Positions 3,088 through 60,013 of a stretch of DNA of 64,000 nt are shown here, one piece after another. Origin of the DNA: Escherichia coli (GTDB lineage: Bacteria > Pseudomonadota > Gammaproteobacteria > Enterobacterales > Enterobacteriaceae); assembly GCF_024223415.1 (NCBI RefSeq), contig NZ_CP100500.1. One strand, 5' to 3'. The position numbers and the translations under genes are program-made. Every line of letters starts with the position of its first letter. The first letter of the stretch is position 1. The notes under the pieces are model-generated. The model did not search any database. It saw only the letters and a program-made list of their open reading frames with translations, and was not told the origin of the DNA.

Positions 3088-4461
3088 ATGCCAAAAGTTC
3101 AGGCCGACGGCCTGCCATTGCCCCAGCGATACGGTGCGATATTAACCATTGTGATTGGTATTTCGATGGCTGTCCTTGACGGCGCAATCGCCAACGTCGC
3201 CCTGCCAACAATCGCCACGGACCTTCATGCCACGCCAGCCAGTTCCATCTGGGTAGTGAACGCCTATCAAATCGCCATTGTCATCTCCCTGCTCTCGTTT
3301 TCGTTTCTGGGCGATATGTTTGGCTATCGACGTATTTATAAATGCGGTCTGGTCGTTTTTCTGTTGTCTTCACTGTTCTGCGCCCTTTCTGATTCGCTGC
3401 AAATGCTCACCCTTGCGCGTGTCATACAAGGTTTCGGCGGTGCAGCGTTGATGAGCGTTAATACCGCACTTATCCGCCTGATCTATCCACAACGTTTTCT
3501 GGGTAGAGGGATGGGCATAAACTCGTTTATTGTTGCCGTCTCTTCTGCTGCCGGGCCGACAATTGCTGCAGCAATCCTCTCCATCGCATCCTGGAAATGG
3601 TTATTTTTAATCAACGTACCGTTAGGTATTATCGCCCTGCTTCTGGCGATGCGTTTTCTGCCGCCCAATGGTTCTCGCGCCAGTAAACCCCGTTTCGACC
3701 TGCCCAGCGCCGTGATGAACGCGTTAACCTTCGGCCTGCTTATCACTGCGTTGAGTGGTTTCGCTCATGGGCAATCGCTGACGTTAATTGCTGCGGAACT
3801 GGTGGTAATGGTTGTTGTTGGTATTTTCTTTATTCGCCGCCAGCTTTCTCTTCCAGTACCGCTGCTACCGGTGGATTTACTGCGTATCCCGCTGTTTTCA
3901 CTTTCTATTTGCACATCTGTTTGCTCTATCTGCGCACAAATGCTGGCAATGGTTTCCCTGCCCTTTTACCTGCAAACCGTGCTCGGGCGTAGTGAAGTCG
4001 AAACAGGTTTACTTCTGACACCGTGGCCGTTAGCAACGATGGTGATGGCTCCGCTGGCAGGCTATTTGATTGAACGCGTACATGCAGGATTGCTGGGTGC
4101 TTTAGGATTATTCATCATGGCTGCGGGGCTTTTTTCCCTGGTTCTGCTGCCCGCGTCACCTGCGGATATCAATATTATCTGGCCGATGATCTTATGTGGC
4201 GCTGGATTTGGCTTGTTCCAGTCACCCAATAACCACACCATTATTACCTCCGCGCCTCGCGAACGTAGCGGTGGAGCCAGTGGCATGTTAGGAACGGCTC
4301 GTCTACTGGGTCAGAGTAGCGGCGCGGCGCTGGTGGCGCTGATGCTAAATCAGTTTGGAGATAATGGTACACACGTCTCGCTGATGGCTGCGGCTATTCT
4401 GGCAGTGATTGCTGCCTGTATCAGTGGGTTACGTATCACTCAGCCACGATCCAGGGCATAA
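3088..4461 (+). CDS. yebQ: MFS transporter YebQ
   Basis: Multi-TM MFS protein; start placed at internal Met (MPKVQADG...) to give the 457-aa K-12 length; the ORF track extends 37 codons upstream. Confidence 0.85.
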   Translation: MPKVQADGLPLPQRYGAILTIVIGISMAVLDGAIANVALPTIATDLHATPASSIWVVNAYQIAIVISLLSFSFLGDMFGYRRIYKCGLVVFLLSSLFCALSDSLQMLTLARVIQGFGGAALMSVNTALIRLIYPQRFLGRGMGINSFIVAVSSAAGPTIAAAILSIASWKWLFLINVPLGIIALLLAMRFLPPNGSRASKPRFDLPSAVMNALTFGLLITALSGFAHGQSLTLIAAELVVMVVVGIFFIRRQLSLPVPLLPVDLLRIPLFSLSICTSVCSICAQMLAMVSLPFYLQTVLGRSEVETGLLLTPWPLATMVMAPLAGYLIERVHAGLLGALGLFIMAAGLFSLVLLPASPADINIIWPMILCGAGFGLFQSPNNHTIITSAPRERSGGASGMLGTARLLGQSSGAALVALMLNQFGDNGTHVSLMAAAILAVIAACISGLRITQPRSRA

Positions 4462-13028: not shown

Positions 13029-14474
13029 ATGCTCGTGGCCCAACACACCGTTTATTTCCCGGACGCCTTTCTGACGCAAATGCGCGAAGCAATGCCTTCG
13101 ACGCTCTCTTTTGATGATTTTCTTGCCGCCTGTCAGCGCCCGTTGCGCCGCAGCATTCGCGTTAATACGCTGAAAATCTCCGTTGCTGATTTCCTGCAAT
13201 TAACCGCTCCTTATGGCTGGACGCTTACGCCAATTCCGTGGTGTGAAGAAGGTTTCTGGATTGAACGCGACGATGAAGATGCATTGCCATTGGGTAGTAC
13301 CGCCGAGCATTTAAGTGGCCTGTTTTATATTCAGGAAGCCAGTTCAATGTTGCCCGTCGCCGCCTTGTTTGCTGACGGTAATGCACCACAGCGGGTGATG
13401 GATATCGCTGCTGCGCCAGGCTCCAAAACGACGCAAATTGCCGCGCGGATGAATAACGAAGGGGCAATCCTTGCCAATGAGTTTTCCGCCAGTCGGGTAA
13501 AAGTGTTACATGCCAATATCAGCCGCTGTGGCATCAGTAATGTTGCGCTCACACATTTTGATGGCCGCGTGTTTGGTGCGGCAGTGCCAGAAATGTTCGA
13601 TGCCATTTTGCTGGACGCTCCCTGCTCTGGCGAAGGCGTGGTGCGTAAAGATCCCGATGCGCTAAAAAACTGGTCACCAGAAAGCAATCAGGAAATCGCA
13701 GCTACACAACGGGAGCTTATCGACAGCGCCTTTCATGCATTACGTCCTGGTGGTACGCTGGTTTACTCGACCTGTACCTTAAACAGGGAAGAAAACGAAG
13801 CCGTTTGCCTGTGGCTGAAAGAGACTTACCCTGACGCAGTAGAGTTTTTACCGCTTGGCGATCTCTTCCCTGGTGCAAACAAAGCGCTGACCGAAGAAGG
13901 CTTTTTGCATGTTTTCCCACAAATTTACGACTGCGAAGGCTTCTTCGTTGCTCGTCTGCGTAAAACTCAGGCCATTCCCGCCTTACCCACCCCAAAATAC
14001 AAAGTGGGCAATTTCCCGTTCAGCCCGGTGAAAGATCGCGAAGCCGGACAAATTCGTCAGGCGGCTGCAAGTGTTGGCTTAAACTGGGATGAAAACCTGC
14101 GCCCCTGGCAGCGTGACAAAGAACTGTGGTTGTTCCCGGTGGGCATTGAAGCCCTGATCGGTAAAGTCCGATTTTCTCGCCTGGGGATTAAACTTGCCGA
14201 GACGCATAACAAAGGTTATCGCTGGCAGCATGAAGCGGTTATTGCTCTTGCCTCCCCCGACAACGAGAACGCTTTTGAACTGACACCGCAAGAAGCGGAG
14301 GAGTGGTATCGCGGGCGCGATGTTTACCCGCAAGCCGCGCCAGTGGCGGATGACGTGTTGGTTACTTTCCAGCATCAGCCGATTGGTTTAGCCAAACGGA
14401 TTGGTTCGCGACTGAAAAACAGCTACCCGCGTGAACTGGTGCGGGACGGGAAACTTTTTACCAGTAACGCATGA
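13029..14474 (+). CDS. rsmF: 16S rRNA m5C1407 methyltransferase RsmF (YebU)
   Basis: AdoMet-dependent methyltransferase motifs; the true start may be the GTG two codons downstream. Confidence 0.9.
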
Positions 14475-21859: not shown

Positions 21860-22519
21860 TTATTCCGCCAAAGTGCGTTTTTGCTGTTCGAGATCGCGTT
21901 CAATGCCTTCACGAACATCCTGGGGGATTTTCAGCGCGTCACCCAGTGCATTCAGGTAACTGCGTTCCATAAAATGGTCAATATCAATAGCCGCGCAGCT
22001 CAGGAAATAGATTTCCAGCGCCTCTTCTTCATTGCGGACCCCGGTAGCCAGGCGTTGTGGATCCAGCGGTTGTTCGATTGCCTGCTCAATGAGTACCCGC
22101 CCCTGCTCTTCCACGCCGGCTTCACGCAATTGCTGGTCGATTGCCGCACGTTCTTTGGCATCAATATGACCATCACTTTTAGCGGCAAAGACTAGCGCAA
22201 GGATCAAACGTTCCGTACGCTCATCCAGCGGCGTACTTTGCGCGCCAAACTGCGGTTCGTCCTGATGCGCCGCGCGAATTTTATCTTTGTATTTATTCCA
22301 CAGCACCGTACCCGCTACCGCTCCGCCGCCAATCAGCAACGCGTTGGTGCCATATTTCGTAAGAAGTTTACGTGCTGATTTATTTGCGACCAGCAGTCCA
22401 GCCAGTCCACCTAATGCGCCCGGCACTAAAAGTTTGCCCAATCCCTGATCCGCAGACGAGGAGGTAGAAGAACTGCTTTGCCCAAGCAGGGATTGCAGTT
22501 GATTTAACCAGTTAGCCAT
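21860..22519 (-). CDS. yebE: inner membrane protein YebE (DUF533)
   Basis: 219-aa ORF; synteny. Confidence 0.85.
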
Positions 22520-22842: not shown

Positions 22843-23247
<405 letters not shown>

Positions 23248-23265
23248 TCAGGAGCGCAAGTTGCT

Positions 23266-23556
23266 TCAGGCCGCGTGTGAGGCATCTTCCTCTTCGGATT
23301 CAGCACCGACGACCTGTGGGGACGGTAATTTGCCGGTTTTCAGAATGGTGCTCAGCACATCTTTTTGTTCTGCCAGCCATAGCGAAAGGGCTTCACGTTG
23401 CTCGTCTTCCATTTGCACTGGAGAATTTGTCAGCCAGGTGTCAAGCAGATCCGCCGTATCAAGCATTTTGTCATAAGCATCGGCTTCCTTTTTGCTGGTA
23501 AACGACATTTTCTCTTCGCCCTCACGAATGACTACGTATTTAACTTCAACCGCCAT
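23266..23556 (-). CDS. yebG: SOS-inducible protein YebG
   Basis: 96-aa ORF; LexA box immediately upstream. Confidence 0.9.
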   Translation of the reverse strand: MAVEVKYVVIREGEEKMSFTSKKEADAYDKMLDTADLLDTWLTNSPVQMEDEQREALSLWLAEQKDVLSTILKTGKLPSPQVVGAESEEEDASHAA

Positions 23557-23575
23557 TTGCAGCCTCTCATAATAA

Positions 23576-23591
23576 CTGTGATTTTATACAG
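23576..23591. promoter_or_regulatory. LexA box (SOS box) of yebG
   Basis: CTGTGATTTTATACAG, CTGT-N8-ACAG palindrome ~20 bp upstream of yebG start. Confidence 0.75.
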
Positions 23592-23636
23592 TATATTTCT
23601 TTTCGGTTGAGAAATCAACACCAGCAATAAAGACAC

Positions 23637-23652
23637 ACGCAAACGTTTTCGT
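23637..23652. promoter_or_regulatory. PurR operator upstream of purT
   Basis: ACGCAAACGTTTTCGT matches the PurR box consensus ACGCAAACGTTTGCGT; ~40 bp upstream of purT start. Confidence 0.75.
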
Positions 23653-23689
23653 TTATACTGCGCGCGGAATTAATCAGGGGATATTAGTT

Positions 23690-24868
23690 ATGACGTTATT
23701 AGGCACTGCGCTGCGTCCGGCAGCAACTCGCGTGATGTTATTAGGCTCCGGTGAACTGGGTAAAGAAGTGGCAATCGAGTGTCAGCGTCTCGGCGTAGAG
23801 GTGATTGCCGTCGATCGCTATGCCGACGCACCAGCCATGCATGTCGCGCATCGCTCCCATGTCATTAATATGCTTGATGGTGATGCATTACGCCGTGTGG
23901 TTGAACTGGAAAAACCACATTATATCGTGCCGGAGATCGAAGCTATTGCCACCGATATGCTGATCCAACTTGAAGAGGAAGGACTGAATGTTGTCCCCTG
24001 CGCTCGCGCAACGAAATTAACGATGAATCGCGAGGGTATCCGTCGCCTGGCGGCAGAAGAGCTGCAGCTGCCCACTTCCACTTATCGTTTTGCCGATAGC
24101 GAAAGCCTTTTCCGCGAGGCGGTTGCCGCCATTGGCTATCCCTGCATTGTAAAACCGGTGATGAGCTCTTCCGGCAAGGGGCAGACGTTTATTCGCTCTG
24201 CAGAGCAACTTGCTCAGGCATGGGAATACGCTCAGCAAGGCGGTCGCGCCGGAGCGGGCCGCGTAATTGTTGAAGGCGTCGTTAAGTTTGACTTCGAAAT
24301 TACCCTGCTAACCGTCAGCGCGGTGGATGGCGTCCATTTCTGTGCACCAGTAGGTCATCGCCAGGAAGATGGCGACTACCGTGAATCCTGGCAACCACAG
24401 CAAATGAGCCCGCTTGCCCTTGAACGTGCGCAGGAGATTGCCCGTAAAGTGGTGCTGGCACTGGGCGGTTATGGTCTGTTTGGTGTCGAGCTGTTTGTCT
24501 GTGGTGATGAGGTGATTTTCAGTGAGGTCTCCCCTCGTCCACATGATACCGGGATGGTGACGTTAATTTCTCAAGATCTCTCAGAGTTTGCCCTGCATGT
24601 ACGTGCCTTCCTCGGACTTCCGGTTGGCGGGATCCGTCAGTATGGTCCTGCAGCTTCTGCCGTTATTCTGCCACAACTGACCAGTCAGAATGTCACGTTT
24701 GATAATGTGCAGAATGCCGTAGGCGCAGATTTGCAGATTCGTTTATTTGGTAAGCCGGAAATTGATGGCAGCCGTCGTCTGGGGGTGGCACTGGCTACGG
24801 CAGAGAGTGTTGTTGACGCCATTGAACGCGCGAAGCACGCCGCCGGACAGGTAAAAGTACAGGGTTAA
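23690..24868 (+). CDS. purT: formate-dependent GAR transformylase PurT
   Basis: 392-aa ATP-grasp enzyme. Confidence 0.95.
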
Positions 24869-44203: not shown

Positions 44204-44310
44204 TTTACATCGGTCTACCGCAATGGTCGCATCCTAAATGGGTGCGGTTGGGGATCACCAGCCTTGAAGAGTATGCCCGCCACTTTAACTGCGTGATACG
44301 GGATTTTTAA
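44200..44310 (+). pseudogene. yecE: yecE 5' fragment, disrupted by prophage insertion
   Basis: Reads [32 protein letters not shown], then diverges from K-12 yecE and stops after 5 more codons; AT-rich phage-like DNA follows. Confidence 0.8.
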
Positions 44311-44411
44311 AAATCACTAAAGAACGCCCAAGAGCATGAGTTTTCTTTAGCATAATCAAAGCGTTGAATTTCCATGCCATATGAAAATCGGCAAAGTTCA
44401 TATGTAACAAA

Positions 44412-44471
44412 GTGTCCCAATCATGCCCCAAATTGCCCCACAACAGACATTTTTGCCCCATGCATGCCCCA
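44412..44471. repeat. phased direct repeats of TG(C/T)CCCA near the prophage-host junction
   Basis: Five copies (TGTCCCA, TGCCCCA x4) starting at 44413, 44424, 44434, 44454, 44465, spaced at ~10-bp multiples. Confidence 0.6.
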
Positions 44472-44492
44472 AAAAATCACTTTCCCTCACCC

Positions 44493-44542
44493 TTGACACT
44501 GTTTATCCATACAGTTAAAAATAATACTGTATACAAACACAG
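44493..44542 (+). promoter_or_regulatory. putative SOS-regulated promoter of phage dinI: -35 TTGACA with two LexA-box-like palindromes
   Basis: TTGACA at 44493-44498; CTGTTTATCCATACAG at 44499-44514; CTGTATACAAACACAG at 44527-44542; both fit CTGT-N8-ACAG. Confidence 0.6.
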
Positions 44543-44557
44543 TGTAGAGGGATTTTT

Positions 44558-44806
44558 ATGCGTATTGAAATCTGTATCGCTAAAGAAAAATTCAGCAAAA
44601 TGCCAAAAGGCTCTGTACCTGCTCTACAACAGGAAATGTCTCGCCGTATCAGAAAACAATACGACGATGTGGAGGTTATAGTAAAATCCGCCAGTAATGA
44701 CGGACTGACCATTTTAAGAGCCGTAGATAAAGAAAACGCTCAGAAGTTCATACAGGAAACGCTGCAGGAAGTCTGGGAAACTGCTGATGACTGGTTTTTT
44801 CACTAA
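44558..44806 (+). CDS. DinI-family DNA-damage-inducible protein (prophage-encoded)
   Basis: 82-aa [22 protein letters not shown]...[16 protein letters not shown], resembling DinI incl. C-terminal acidic WExADDWF motif; good SD (AGAGGG). Confidence 0.8.
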
Positions 44807-44873
44807 TCAGGACGTCAAATAAATAACAACTGTAATTATTCTCTCCAAATTAACAATCTCTGTATACATACTC

Positions 44874-44910
44874 AGGCGTGTTCACGCATACAACACGCCT
44901 TTCTGATATT
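44874..44910 (+). terminator. intrinsic terminator downstream of dinI-like gene
   Basis: AGGCGTGTT-cacgcatac-AACACGCCT followed by TTCTGATATTT. Confidence 0.55.
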
Positions 44911-44982
44911 TAATTGTTTACAGAAATATTGCCGAATAAAAATATAAACCATAGTCTTAAAAAAATAATAATTCCACTATAG

Positions 44983-45078
44983 CTATCCCAGAACAACCAG
45001 TACAAATAATAAAAGACATATCACAGCAACACTCCACACTGACAGCGCAAAAATAAATGCCGCCTTTGTTATCTTCAT
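44983..45078 (-). CDS. hypothetical 31-aa hydrophobic peptide (speculative)
   Basis: Manual translation: MKITKAAFIFALSVWSVAVICLLLFVLVVLG; single predicted TM helix; weak SD; lies in an AT-rich spacer. Confidence 0.2.
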   Translation of the reverse strand: MKITKAAFIFALSVWSVAVICLLLFVLVVLG

Positions 45079-45189
45079 ATACAAGCAACCTGTCCTGATA
45101 ATCACCAACTCATGTTTTATTCTTAACCATTCGTCACAAATACAACAAAAAATAACAGCAGCAGCACCGATATCACAATATAAGATACA

Positions 45190-45645
45190 TTATTCAACAC
45201 CTGAATCCCCCGCAGCTTCTCTCCCCTTTATAAAACGCCCCTTCCGGAATCCAGACCGCTGCAGTGCACGACGAAGATGACCGTATACCGTCTTGTCATT
45301 CTGCCCCGTCTCTTCTGTAATCTCCGCAATACTTAAACCTCTGTAATACCGGTTCAGTACCGCTCTGCGCTCTTCCAGCGTCAACACACCTCCGGCCGCT
45401 CTCAGATTCAGCATCGACTTATTCAGAATACAGCAGGCCTCTCCGGTAAAAAGAATACGAACAATATCTGTATACTCATCATCACAGAATACAAAATAAT
45501 ATCTGAATGACCTGCCTGACTGCACCCTTCTTCTGTCTGATATGGCATCTTCTATATATCTGATTCGACTGCTTACGGTTCCAAATATCTCTCGCAGGGC
45601 TTTTTCAAAATAAATATCTCTCGTCGCCAGGATTATATCCAGCAT
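45190..45645 (-). CDS. LuxR/GerE-type HTH transcriptional regulator (prophage accessory)
   Basis: 151-aa ORF; C-terminal LTLEERRAVLNRYYRGLSIAEITEETGQNDKTVYGHLRRALQR fits the GerE/LuxR HTH pattern; Arg codons almost all AGA/AGG/CGA and frequent ATA Ile. Confidence 0.6.
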   Translation of the reverse strand: MLDIILATRDIYFEKALREIFGTVSSRIRYIEDAISDRRRVQSGRSFRYYFVFCDDEYTDIVRILFTGEACCILNKSMLNLRAAGGVLTLEERRAVLNRYYRGLSIAEITEETGQNDKTVYGHLRRALQRSGFRKGRFIKGREAAGDSGVE

Positions 45646-45661
45646 CTCTGTACCTCATTAT

Positions 45662-45682
45662 ATCCCGGGGGACTCCCCCGGG
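45662..45682. other. GC-rich hairpin between eib-like gene and regulator
   Basis: TCCCGGGGG-ACT-CCCCCGGGA, 9-bp perfect stem, no U-tract. Confidence 0.5.
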
Positions 45683-45705
45683 ACAGATATCTAAATCCTG
45701 ACCTG

Positions 45706-46833
45706 TCAGAACTCAAAATTCACACCAGCATTCCACGATGCGGATGACCCACCTGCAGCAACTGCAACTTTTCCTGCCACATTCTCTGTGAAACGGTAGC
45801 CCACGCCCACCGCAATGGCCTGCTCATCACGGTAACCACCAACGGCTGCTGTCGCGTTAAATTTTCCAACACTGTATGGCTGGAAAAGACCGGCCAGTGC
45901 CGCGCTCTGGGCTGCACTCTCCCTTAACTCCTTCCGGTTCTCTTTAATCTGCTCCTGCATATTATTCATTCTCTCTGTCGCCATCTTCTGCCAGGCTTCC
46001 GTCAAATCCAGACGATGACTGTTATTCCTTATCGCTGCTGTATTTGAGGCTATTGCTGCATCCGTCTGCGCCCTGTTCTTCACAAGCACATCGCTGAGAT
46101 GTTCTGCCTGGCTTTTCACCTCGTTACGGACAGTACGCACACTGCTGTCTGTATATGTACGCGTCTCGTCCAGAACATCCGACTTCACCGCATCCGTGTA
46201 TTCCTGCGCAGAAGCCCTGGCAGCTGTAATATTACCGTTAAGTCTGTTTTCTGCCGATTCCACTCGACTCTTAGCATCAGCAACAGCATCACGGTAGACA
46301 GCTCCTATCTCACCGCGCAGGGCATCCCCCGACTCCCGTACAGCATCTGCAATGGCGTTGTCCATCTGTCCTTTTGTGGCCGCATCACTATCCTTAACAC
46401 CATCTGAAACATTTATAATCCGGCGGGTTTCCGGTGCACCATCAACTGAAAATCCATATCCTGAAGGACCGGCCCCTACAGAAAGTACATTGCTTTCTCC
46501 ATTCACCTGAGAGCCATACCCCAGAGCGACACTGTTGTCTGCATTAAAAACAGCTGTATTATTTCCCACAGCCATGGATTTATCCGCATCCCAAATTATT
46601 GCATCGGAACCAACAGCAAAGTTTTTTCCAGTAACACTACCATCACTGTTAAAATTTCCATTTCTGTCAACCACAGTTGCACTTTCAAGTGAATGAGTGC
46701 CATTATCAATCCAGATAATACCCGTCGATGACTCAGTAAGTGTTTTATGAGCCAAAGCCTGAGATGAGAGCAGCAGGGCCACACTCACTGCCAGCGCGCT
46801 TTTCTTTAAAAAAGCATCACGTCTTTTAAGCAT
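45706..46833 (-). CDS. trimeric autotransporter adhesin, Eib-like (E. coli immunoglobulin-binding protein family) candidate
   Basis: 375-aa product from MLKRRDAFLKKSALAVSVALLLSSQALA (signal peptide; SD AGGAG 9 nt upstream); coiled-coil stalk; C-terminal YadA-like anchor ...WNAGVNFEF; Eib genes are known prophage cargo; the ORF track extends 18 codons upstream. Confidence 0.7.
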   Translation of the reverse strand: MLKRRDAFLKKSALAVSVALLLSSQALAHKTLTESSTGIIWIDNGTHSLESATVVDRNGNFNSDGSVTGKNFAVGSDAIIWDADKSMAVGNNTAVFNADNSVALGYGSQVNGESNVLSVGAGPSGYGFSVDGAPETRRIINVSDGVKDSDAATKGQMDNAIADAVRESGDALRGEIGAVYRDAVADAKSRVESAENRLNGNITAARASAQEYTDAVKSDVLDETRTYTDSSVRTVRNEVKSQAEHLSDVLVKNRAQTDAAIASNTAAIRNNSHRLDLTEAWQKMATERMNNMQEQIKENRKELRESAAQSAALAGLFQPYSVGKFNATAAVGGYRDEQAIAVGVGYRFTENVAGKVAVAAGGSSASWNAGVNFEF

Positions 46834-47181
46834 TCTGTTATTCTCCTGTATTATTACTTCACCAGCCAGAACGGTAGTGCGGAGCAAAAATACAGTGATA
46901 AGAATCCTCTTTTATTAATTTAATAATATCAGGAATATTATTGTGTATAATATGCGCCCTCAATTTAAGCAGCAGAAAAGCAATGACGCGAAAATCATTA
47001 AAATACATAAAGATAAAACATCATAACTATAATTATAATAAGCGCGCTTATTTTAGCATCTGAACATTTAAAGTACTGCTATCACAAAACAATAAAAATC
47101 CTGGGTAATATCTCTGATGATTGAATGAGAAATTCACGATGTCTGGTGAGAATTCTGTTCAAAACGAGGAATGCAGACGTA

Positions 47182-47268
47182 CACGTGGCACGCACCACGT
47201 GATCCGTAGAAAAGCCTCTTGTTACGAATTTCGTAAACCGCACGTCTGTCTGGTCGTGCGGATTTTTT
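47182..47268 (+). other. three consecutive hairpins ending in an intrinsic terminator (candidate structured RNA 3' end)
   Basis: CACGTGG-cacgca-CCACGTG (47182-47201); perfect 15-bp palindrome TTACGAATTTCGTAA (47222-47236); CCGCACG-tctgtctggt-CGTGCGG + ATTTTTT (47238-47268). Confidence 0.45.
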
Positions 47269-57455: not shown

Positions 57456-60013
57456 CGTCCACCTCCGGAGAACAGACCACCATCACGCATCTGTGTCTGA
57501 ATTTCATCACGGGCACCCTTGCGGGCCATGTCATACACCGCCTTCAGCATCTGTGGACCTGGCAGACCATTCGTACCGTCGTTCTGAATCACCACGTTGT
57601 TGTTCTGCTCAAACCTGATACCCTCTGAACGCCGCATTTGTGCCGGACTTCCGGTGCCACCGACATAACCACCAGTGGCATAGCCGCGCATCAGCCGGTA
57701 GAGATTTCCCACGCCAATCCGGCTGGTTGCCTCCTTCGTGAAGACAAACTCACCACGGTGAACAATCCCCGCTGGCTCATATTTGCCGCCGGTTCCCGTA
57801 AATCCCCCGGTCGCAAAATGGAATTTTGCCGCAGCAGCCTGAATGGCTGTACCGCCTGACACTGATGCGCCACCACCGGCAGCACCGCCAATGACGCTGC
57901 CGATACTCCCGACAATCCCCACCATTGCCTGCTTAAGCAGAATTTCTGTCATCATGGACAGCACGGAACGGGTGAAGCTGCGCCAGTTCTGCTCACTGCC
58001 GGTCAGCATCGCCGCCATATTCTGTGCAATTCCATCAAAGGTCTGCGTGGCTGCACTTTTTACCTGCGACATACTGTCCGTGGCGCTCTCTTCCCACTCA
58101 CTCCAGCCGGACTTCAGGCCTGCCATCCAGTTCCCGCGAAGCTGGTCTTCAGCCGCCCAGGTCTTTTTCTGCTCTGACATGACGTTATTCAGCGCCAGCG
58201 GATTATCGCCATACTGTTCCTTCAGGCGCTGTTCCGTGGCTTCCCGTTCTGTCTGCCGGTCAGTCAGCCCCCGGCTTTTCGCATCAATGGCGGCCCGTTT
58301 TGCCCGTTGCTGCTGTGCGAATTTATCCGCCTGCTGCGCCAGCGCGTTCAGGCGCTCCTGATACGTAACCTTGTCGCCAAGTGCAGCCAGCTGGCGTTTG
58401 TACTCCAGCGTCTCATCTTTATGCGCCAGCAGGGATTTCTCCTGTGCAGACAGCTGGCGACGTTGCGCCGCCTCCTCCAGTACCGCGAACTGACTCTCCG
58501 CCTTCCACAAATCCCGGCGCTGCTGGCTGATTTTCTCATTTGCTCCGGCATGCTTCTCCAGCGTCCGGAGTTCTGCCTGAAGCGTCAGCAGGGCGGCATG
58601 AGCACTGTCTTCCTGACGATCGCCCGCAGACACCTTCACGCCGGACTGTTTCGGCTTTTTCAGCGTCGCTTCATAATCCTTTTTCGCCGCCGCCATCAGC
58701 GTGTTGTAATCTGCCTGCAGGATTTTTCCGTCTTTCAGTGCCTTGTTCAGTTCTTCCTGACGGGCGGTATATTTCTCCAGCGGTGTCTGCAGGCGTTCGT
58801 AAGCCTTCTGCGCCTCTTCGGTATATTTCAGCCGTGACGCTTCGGTATCGCTCTGCTGCTGCGCATTTTTGTCCTGTTGACTCTGCTGCTCAGCCTTCTT
58901 TCGGGCGGCTTCAAGCGCAAGACGGGCCTTTTCACGATCATCCCAGTAACGCGCCCGCGCTTCATCGTTAACAAAATAATCATCCTTGCGCAGATTCCAG
59001 ATATCGTCCGCTTTCTTAAACGCGGCCTCTGCCTTAATCAGCATCTCCTGCGCGGTATCAGGACGACCAGTATCCAGCACCGCATCCCACATGGATTTGA
59101 ATGCCCGTGCTGTCCTGTCTGCCCAGGTTTCCAGCGTGCCCATGTTCTCTTTCAGGCGGCGGGTCTGGTCATCAAACCCTTTCGTTGCGGCCTCGTTCGC
59201 CGCCTGCAATGCCCCTGCCTCATCGCCGGAACGCTGCAACTGAGCAACATACGCAATCTGCTCCGCCGTCACGTTATGGAACTGGCGCGCCATCGCCGTC
59301 AGCCCCGACGTCGGGTCTGTGGTCAGCTTCCCGAAGGCTTCAGCGACCTTGTCCACCTCCACGCCGGATGCAGAGGAGAAACGCGCCACACTCTGGCTGA
59401 TGGACGCAATCTGAGCCTCACCGCTTACCCCCGCCTTAACCAGTGCGCTGAGTGACTCGCTGGTCTGGTTAAACGTCAGCCCTGCCGCCTGCCCGGCTCT
59501 GGACAGGACCAGCATACGATCTGCCGTCAGTCCCGCCTGATTGCCGGAAAGGACCAGCGTTTTGTTGAAATCGGACAGGGTTGAGTTGCCCTGATACCAG
59601 GCATACGCCAGCGCACCGGTCGCCACCGCCAGCGAGGTGGCCCCGACCATCGGCAGGGTGATCGCACCGGCAAGCCCCCTGAACATGGGGATCATCCCGC
59701 CGAAGGAGTCCTTCACCTGACCACCCTGTTGCAGCAGGATCAGCCACGGACTCTGCCCGCCTGCAAGCTGTGTGGCCACGTCGGTGAACTGTGCAGGCAG
59801 CATACGCATGGCGGCTTTATACTGTCCGACGGAAATCCCCGCTTTCTGTGCAGCCAGCGCCTGCCGGTTCATTGACTGTTCAACGACTGCCGCTGTTTTT
59901 TTCGCATCACTTTCCGTACCGGAAAAATGACGCCTGACTCTGGCCATCTGCTCGTCAAACCTGGCCGCATCCAGACTTAAATCAACGACCAGATCGCCTA
60001 CCGGTTCAGCCAT
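57452..60013 (-). CDS. H: tail tape measure protein H
   Basis: 853-aa ORF, same length as lambda gpH; matches recalled sequence over most of its length. Confidence 0.93.
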   Translation of the reverse strand: MAEPVGDLVVDLSLDAARFDEQMARVRRHFSGTESDAKKTAAVVEQSMNRQALAAQKAGISVGQYKAAMRMLPAQFTDVATQLAGGQSPWLILLQQGGQVKDSFGGMIPMFRGLAGAITLPMVGATSLAVATGALAYAWYQGNSTLSDFNKTLVLSGNQAGLTADRMLVLSRAGQAAGLTFNQTSESLSALVKAGVSGEAQIASISQSVARFSSASGVEVDKVAEAFGKLTTDPTSGLTAMARQFHNVTAEQIAYVAQLQRSGDEAGALQAANEAATKGFDDQTRRLKENMGTLETWADRTARAFKSMWDAVLDTGRPDTAQEMLIKAEAAFKKADDIWNLRKDDYFVNDEARARYWDDREKARLALEAARKKAEQQSQQDKNAQQQSDTEASRLKYTEEAQKAYERLQTPLEKYTARQEELNKALKDGKILQADYNTLMAAAKKDYEATLKKPKQSGVKVSAGDRQEDSAHAALLTLQAELRTLEKHAGANEKISQQRRDLWKAESQFAVLEEAAQRRQLSAQEKSLLAHKDETLEYKRQLAALGDKVTYQERLNALAQQADKFAQQQRAKRAAIDAKSRGLTDRQTEREATEQRLKEQYGDNPLALNNVMSEQKKTWAAEDQLRGNWMAGLKSGWSEWEESATDSMSQVKSAATQTFDGIAQNMAAMLTGSEQNWRSFTRSVLSMMTEILLKQAMVGIVGSIGSVIGGAAGGGASVSGGTAIQAAAAKFHFATGGFTGTGGKYEPAGIVHRGEFVFTKEATSRIGVGNLYRLMRGYATGGYVGGTGSPAQMRRSEGIRFEQNNNVVIQNDGTNGLPGPQMLKAVYDMARKGARDEIQTQMRDGGLFSGGGR

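Follow-up and report, generated by a model that had tools for sequence, protein, structure and literature searches.

LexA and PurR operators in the divergent yebG-purT intergenic region of Escherichia coli

Genes, operators and promoters of the yebG-purT region

The window, by which the whole 64-kb stretch of analysed DNA is meant, carries yebG and purT in divergent orientation, and according to its list of open reading frames the two coding sequences are separated by a 133-bp spacer of the E. coli chromosome. The coordinates of the features are presented in Table 1. The gene identities given in the first-pass annotation agreed with RefSeq and with protein family scores: YebG reached 206 bits against the NCBIfam equivalog NF007475 (cut-off 161) and PurT 653 bits against NF006766 (cut-off 339), the latter protein also matching TIGR01142. 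The locus, annotated as yebG and purT, was found in 5425 of 5426 complete E. coli genomes. Positions 23200-23800 were 100% identical to a record of E. coli O157:H7. Compared with the window, the spacer of K-12 MG1655 (b1848/b1849) has two base differences, at 23621 and 23686, and neither falls within the boxes or the promoter hexamers. Since the two bases lie outside every element, the results published for K-12 can be transferred directly to the window. A scan of 23150-23800 against Rfam with permissive filters gave no RNA family match at E-values up to 1.

Table 1. Positions of genes and regulatory elements around the yebG-purT spacer in the window.
Feature	Position	Strand	Description and basis
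yebF CDS (RefSeq start)	22843-23199	minus	annotation
yebG CDS	23266-23556	minus	96 aa, DNA damage-inducible protein YebG; ORF, NCBIfam and RefSeq annotation
yebG Shine-Dalgarno GAGG (putative; CCTC on plus)	23563-23566	minus	direct reading; predicted ribosome-binding site
LexA operator (SOS box), 20 nt	23574-23593	minus	TACTGTATAAAATCACAGTT on the yebG-sense strand; PWM, published box, conservation
yebG -10 hexamer TATACT	23590-23595	minus	promoter scan; same hexamer in PMC3946193; 97% conserved
yebG -35 hexamer TTGATT	23613-23618	minus	promoter scan; PMC3946193; 17-bp spacer to -10; 70% conserved
purT -35 hexamer AAGACA	23630-23635	plus	promoter scan; PMC3946193; 18-bp spacer to -10; 84% conserved
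PurR operator (pur box), 16 bp	23637-23652	.	PWM, ChIP-chip motif identity, 97% conserved
purT -10 hexamer TATACT	23654-23659	plus	promoter scan; PMC3946193; 98% conserved
purT ribosome-binding site GGGGA	23677-23681		
purT CDS	23690-24868	plus	392 aa, formate-dependent GAR transformylase; ORF, NCBIfam and RefSeq annotation

On the yebG side, the sequence CTGTGATTTTATACAG with the core CTGT-N8-ACAG was read at 23576-23591. Both arms of the LexA box are perfect, 15 of its 20 positions agree with the consensus TACTG(TA)5CAGTA, and it lies 17 bp from the yebG ATG. The published SOS box of yebG is the identical 20-mer (PMC3009722 Table 4). The promoter scan of 23200-23750 returned exactly two sigma-70-like promoters, that of yebG on the minus strand and that of purT on the plus strand. 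Both hexamer pairs also appear for this spacer in the RpoD genomic SELEX table of Shimada 2014 (PMC3946193). The predicted yebG -10 hexamer, TATACT, shares 4 bp with the LexA box. An alternative -10-like hexamer, TAAAAT (23586-23581), is located inside the box, 9 bp downstream of TATACT. In the Sort-Seq study of Belliveau 2018, the RNA polymerase site of yebG was shifted downstream by 9 bp relative to a previous computational placement (PMC6003448), and the offset between the two hexamers equals this disagreement; the LexA box covers the -10 element either way.

The function of the box was determined previously in K-12. Sort-Seq of the yebG promoter detected LexA and RNA polymerase sites, and the promoter was induced by mitomycin C (PMC6003448). 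Induction of yebG by UV was also published (PMC3009722), and AZT induced the gene 4.4-fold with a lexA dependence of 9.7-fold (PMC11228462). The heterology index of the yebG box was given as 6.3, compared with about 2 for umuD (PMC11228462). A tiling array resulted in a single 'yebG, yebF' transcript, and yebF was described as being under full LexA control (PMC3009722). The LexA-controlled yebG transcript thus probably extends into yebF. A crude scan found no terminator-like sites between yebG and yebF, which fits co-transcription and is no proof of it.

On the purT side, ACGCAAACGTTTTCGT was read at 23637-23652. Its reverse complement, ACGAAAACGTTTGCGT, agrees at every specified position with the pur box consensus ACGNAAACGTTTGCNT, a 16-bp imperfect palindrome with a central CG, and is the motif listed for purT under the PurR ChIP-chip peak (PMC3159470 Table 1). 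In K-12, this peak was enhanced by adenine, and purT was derepressed in a purR deletion (PMC3159470). In the purT promoter, the PurR box fills the space separating the two hexamers and lies 37 bp from the start codon. The Sort-Seq data on the purT promoter likewise resulted in a repressor site between -35 and -10 which appeared with adenine and vanished in the purR deletion, and from which PurR was recovered by DNA-affinity mass spectrometry (PMC6003448). The first-pass annotation had placed a LexA box controlling yebG at 23576-23591 and a PurR box before purT at 23637-23652; both positions were exact, and the experiments cited above bear out both assignments.

The back-to-back arrangement named in the first-pass annotation corresponds to a gap of 43 bp from the LexA 20-mer to the PurR 16-mer, which contains both -35 hexamers, 11 bp apart. 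Together, the operators, the promoter hexamers and the two ribosome-binding sites take up almost the whole spacer. The description of two unrelated regulons within an intergenic region of about 130 bp was correct. Directly 3' of the purT -10 hexamer, a GC-rich stretch, GCGCGCGG (23660-23667), was observed, the first positions of which are 70-90% conserved in 59 species. Discriminators rich in GC are commonly seen at promoters under inhibition by ppGpp/DksA.

Motif scores in the 64-kb window

The LexA position weight matrix (PWM) was built from 17 boxes of PMC3009722 Table 4 with the yebG site left out, and the PurR PWM from 27 motifs under ChIP-chip peaks of PMC3159470 Table 1 with the purT site left out. 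Both strands of the 64 kb were scanned, and 200 shuffles served as the control. With 22.99 bits, the yebG box ranked first among the LexA matches of the window (the training sites cover 16.8-30.2 bits, with a median of 22.5). The best PurR match was the purT box with 25.14 of the possible 25.25 bits (training range 12.0-23.8, median 20.2), and the next-best PurR locus reached 14.6 bits. Neither the LexA nor the PurR score was reached in any of the 200 shuffles. The PurR 16-mer was also the sole match in the window with two or fewer mismatches. The first-pass annotation had proposed PWM scans as the check on its two sites, with poor scores counting against them; both sites came out at the top of the window. 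The locus is useful as a positive control, in which simple LexA and PurR PWMs retrieve true sites as top matches.

The remaining PurR-like matches (14.6 bits or less, e.g. 3769-3784 and 13795-13810) were rejected as chance, the mean best score of the shuffled windows being about 14.3 bits. The same applies to LexA-like matches of 12.8 bits or less (e.g. 22494-22513), for which the corresponding mean was about 13.2 bits. The ruvAB LexA box CGCTGGATATCTATCCAGCA (38831-38850), downstream of which ruvA is annotated in a related record, was recovered at 21.4 bits; it belongs to the training set and is not an independent result.

The pattern CTGT-N8-ACAG occurs 4 times in the window, whereas 0.72 copies are expected. 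The copy at 57946-57961, with a GC-rich spacer, was not among the ten best LexA PWM matches, i.e. it scored below 12.24 bits. Two perfect copies, CACTGTTTATCCATACAGTT (22.0 bits) and TACTGTATACAAACACAGTG (22.4 bits), are arranged in tandem at 44497-44544, 8 bp apart, and 13 bp lie between the end of the second and the start codon of a DinI-like ORF (44558-44806, 82 aa). This ORF scored 71.8 bits against NF007893, below the cut-off of 111. Judged by sequence, two of the other three copies, those before the DinI-like gene, look like genuine LexA boxes, and 44497-44806 looks like an SOS-controlled dinI paralogue on a mobile element. The window departs from O157:H7 strain TR01 after yecD (about 44204-47200 and beyond), yecE being the next gene in TR01. 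The insertion carries cargo resembling that of mobile elements (DinI-like, sigma-like HTH and YadA-like proteins, with an integrase in related records). Among the 5426 complete E. coli genomes, just 4 contain 80% or more of the 3-kb post-yecD stretch in one place.

Conservation in Enterobacterales and allelic variation

A scan based on YebG with one genome per species yielded 80 loci, from Escherichia to Yersinia, Serratia, Erwinia and Pantoea. The best LexA match of each locus of about 5 kb adjoined the yebG 5' end in all 80 species, scoring at least 16 bits in 79 of them. A PurR box of at least 20.5 bits was located 35-87 bp upstream of purT in each of the 79 loci with purT. The two genes directly adjoin each other in divergent orientation in 58 loci, where the spacer measures 128-141 bp. 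In these compact loci, 14-19 bp separate the LexA box from the start codon of yebG and 35-43 bp the PurR box from that of purT, and in 54 of them the distance between the box centres is 59-63 bp.

The footprint of conservation was determined from a MAFFT alignment of 59 distinct compact spacers. The LexA arms were conserved at about 100%, the PurR box at 97% and both -10 hexamers at 97-98%, the stretches in between at about 50%. The block at 23558-23566 around the yebG Shine-Dalgarno sequence was 80-90% conserved. No conserved block of the 59-spacer footprint was left without explanation.

In 20 Yersiniaceae loci, yebG and purT are 1.7-2.1 kb apart and a gene on the yebG strand lies between them. 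The intervening gene was identified as dbpA, encoding a DEAD-box RNA helicase (NF008744, 772 bits). These loci (L053, L055, L056, L058-L061, L065-L068, L071-L075, L077-L079 and L081) belong to Yersinia, Serratia, Chimaeribacter and Edaphovirga. The PurR box was found in the purT-dbpA gap and the LexA box in the dbpA-yebG gap of about 90 bp. In Klebsiella spallanzanii (L048), the spacer is extended to 261 bp by a repeat of about 126 bp, which sits precisely between the -35 hexamers of yebG and purT and leaves operators and promoters intact. The inserted sequence is a repeat dispersed over intergenic regions, E. coli genomes containing a median of 6 copies of it, and resembles ERIC. In all 21 split loci, the start codon of yebG is preceded at 15-38 bp by a LexA box of 21.5-29.1 bits, and that of purT at 40-87 bp by a PurR box of 22.9-25.1 bits. 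Where dbpA or the repeat splits the spacer, the boxes thus remain with their respective genes, which indicates that the modules are independent. The adjacency of the two regulons is accordingly an accident of gene order and not a functional unit.

A degenerate yebG LexA box, TCGCGGATATTAATACAGTT, was observed in Yersinia nurmii (L054, about 2455-2474). It scores 9.5 bits, and its right half alone is kept. An extra 232-aa ORF is located upstream, and purT is absent from the locus, which suggests a rearrangement breakpoint inside the LexA box.

Within E. coli, the yebG LexA box is polymorphic, and the PWM scores of the alleles range from 20.9 to 23.8 bits. The 36-mer shared by the window and K-12 (23562-23597) was present exactly in 4335 of the 5426 genomes, and about 530 genomes, not counting those with the typed alleles given next, carry a single difference somewhere in it. 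The allele 23581 A>G was found in 548 genomes, about 10% of the complete genomes, and 23580 G>A in 7 genomes. The change 23584 T>C was seen in one O157:H7 strain. The allele CTGTATTTTTATACAG of L002, a record labelled E. coli, gave 0 matches among the 5426 complete E. coli genomes, where masking of low-complexity sequence by BLAST is possible. In Salmonella, the ON subpopulation is altered when one base of the yebG box is changed (PMC8072944); by analogy, a natural E. coli allele such as 23581 A>G might make the yebG-ON fraction of cells larger or smaller. The PurR box varies at its first base, 23637: the window and K-12 have A there (25.1 bits), E. albertii and some strains of E. coli (L084, L085) have G (23.0 bits).

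Regulation of the two promoters and comparison with known systems

With a probability of about 0.95, the spacer consists of two back-to-back sigma-70 promoters which point in opposite directions, act independently and are each controlled by simple repression from an operator of their own; none of the evidence speaks against this arrangement. The binding and the regulation were shown in the K-12 literature and should apply to the strain of the window, given the identity of the boxes; the start sites and the repression by steric occlusion are predicted. At the yebG promoter (TTGATT-17-TATACT), a LexA dimer at 23574-23593 would lie over the -10 hexamer and the predicted start and thereby block RNA polymerase. 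Upon DNA damage, RecA-stimulated self-cleavage of LexA would release yebG, with the transcript probably running on into yebF. At the purT promoter (AAGACA-18-TATACT), PurR bound to hypoxanthine or guanine, as in purine-replete cells, would exclude RNA polymerase. The label of known biology in the first-pass annotation was appropriate, both sites having already been demonstrated as functional in K-12. Both operators and promoters are known and experimentally dissected there, and the locus is of little value as a discovery.

The closeness of the two modules raises the question of coupling, in which PurR occupancy would modulate yebG, or purT would respond to LexA or, by way of local supercoiling or polymerase competition, to divergent transcription. 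Purine status would then be linked to part of the SOS response. The PurR box lies at about -54 to -69 from the predicted yebG start, within reach of the alpha C-terminal domain of RNA polymerase, and the -35 hexamers are separated by just 11 bp. The spacer length of 128-141 bp in 58 species and the distance of 59-63 bp between the box centres in 54 of 58 loci are kept despite intervening sequence of only about 50% conservation. The tight spacing of the compact loci is more simply due to the functional elements which fill nearly all of the spacer and leave no spare DNA. After AZT treatment, purine genes tend to fall while yebG rises (PMC11228462); the fall was described for purine genes generally and not for purT specifically. 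Sort-Seq detected at each promoter its own features alone and 'distinguishes directional regulatory features' (PMC6003448). The adjacency is also dispensable, as the boxes are fully kept with dbpA (20 Yersiniaceae loci) or the 126-bp repeat (L048) in between. The split loci and the directional Sort-Seq results make coupling quite improbable. A weaker cross-talk, in which PurR occupancy or purT transcription tunes the level or the cell-to-cell variability of yebG/yebF, or the reverse, is hardly more probable; it would make purine status an input to one SOS transcription unit.

Two further readings concern the motifs themselves. The yebG element CTGTGATTTTATACAG contains TGTGA at 23577-23581 and could be, or double as, a CRP site through this half-site. 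In older work, the expression of yebG was reported to depend on cAMP and H-NS. For the yebG/purT spacer (23557-23689), H-NS is marked in the RpoD genomic SELEX table (PMC3946193). However, the second half after the 6-bp gap is ACAGT, which agrees with the CRP consensus TCACA in just 2 of 5 bases. The G at 23580 is confined to E. coli, with A or T in its place in E. albertii, E. whittamii and most other genera, in contrast to the invariant LexA arms. Due to the poor second half-site and the non-conserved G, the CRP reading of TGTGA was rejected as very improbable. Short palindromes generally turn up by chance, as the low-scoring copy at 57946-57961 illustrates, and one or both motifs could in principle be chance matches without function. 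This has a negligible probability considering that each site is the top PWM match of the 64 kb and was equalled in 0 of 200 shuffles, that position and sequence are conserved in 79-80 species, and that direct experiments exist for K-12.

The two independent, back-to-back repressible promoters correspond to known systems. The yebG-purT region of K-12 MG1655 is the same locus, with the LexA 20-mer and the PurR 16-mer as published and a different strain background. The O157:H7 record is identical over 23200-23800 and lacks the post-yecD insertion, with no functional difference at yebG-purT. The canonical SOS operators of recA, sulA, umuDC and dinI, which overlap the -10 element or the start site, resemble the yebG box in having CTGT-N8-ACAG with an AT-rich centre over the core promoter and in acting by simple repression that is relieved by LexA cleavage. 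With 22.7-23.0 bits, the yebG box is of middling strength in comparison with the umuDC and sbmC boxes (29-30 bits). The location of the purT operator between -35 and -10 is found also at other pur regulon promoters, 14 of the 32 PurR-regulated promoters having this arrangement according to Cho et al. (PMC3159470). The purT operator is close to the consensus (25.14 of 25.25 bits) and above most members of the pur regulon (median 20.2 bits). The uvrA-ssb pair also has a short divergent region, in which a single LexA box serves both genes. Unlike there, LexA serves only the yebG side of the spacer described here, and the purT promoter answers to an unrelated repressor.
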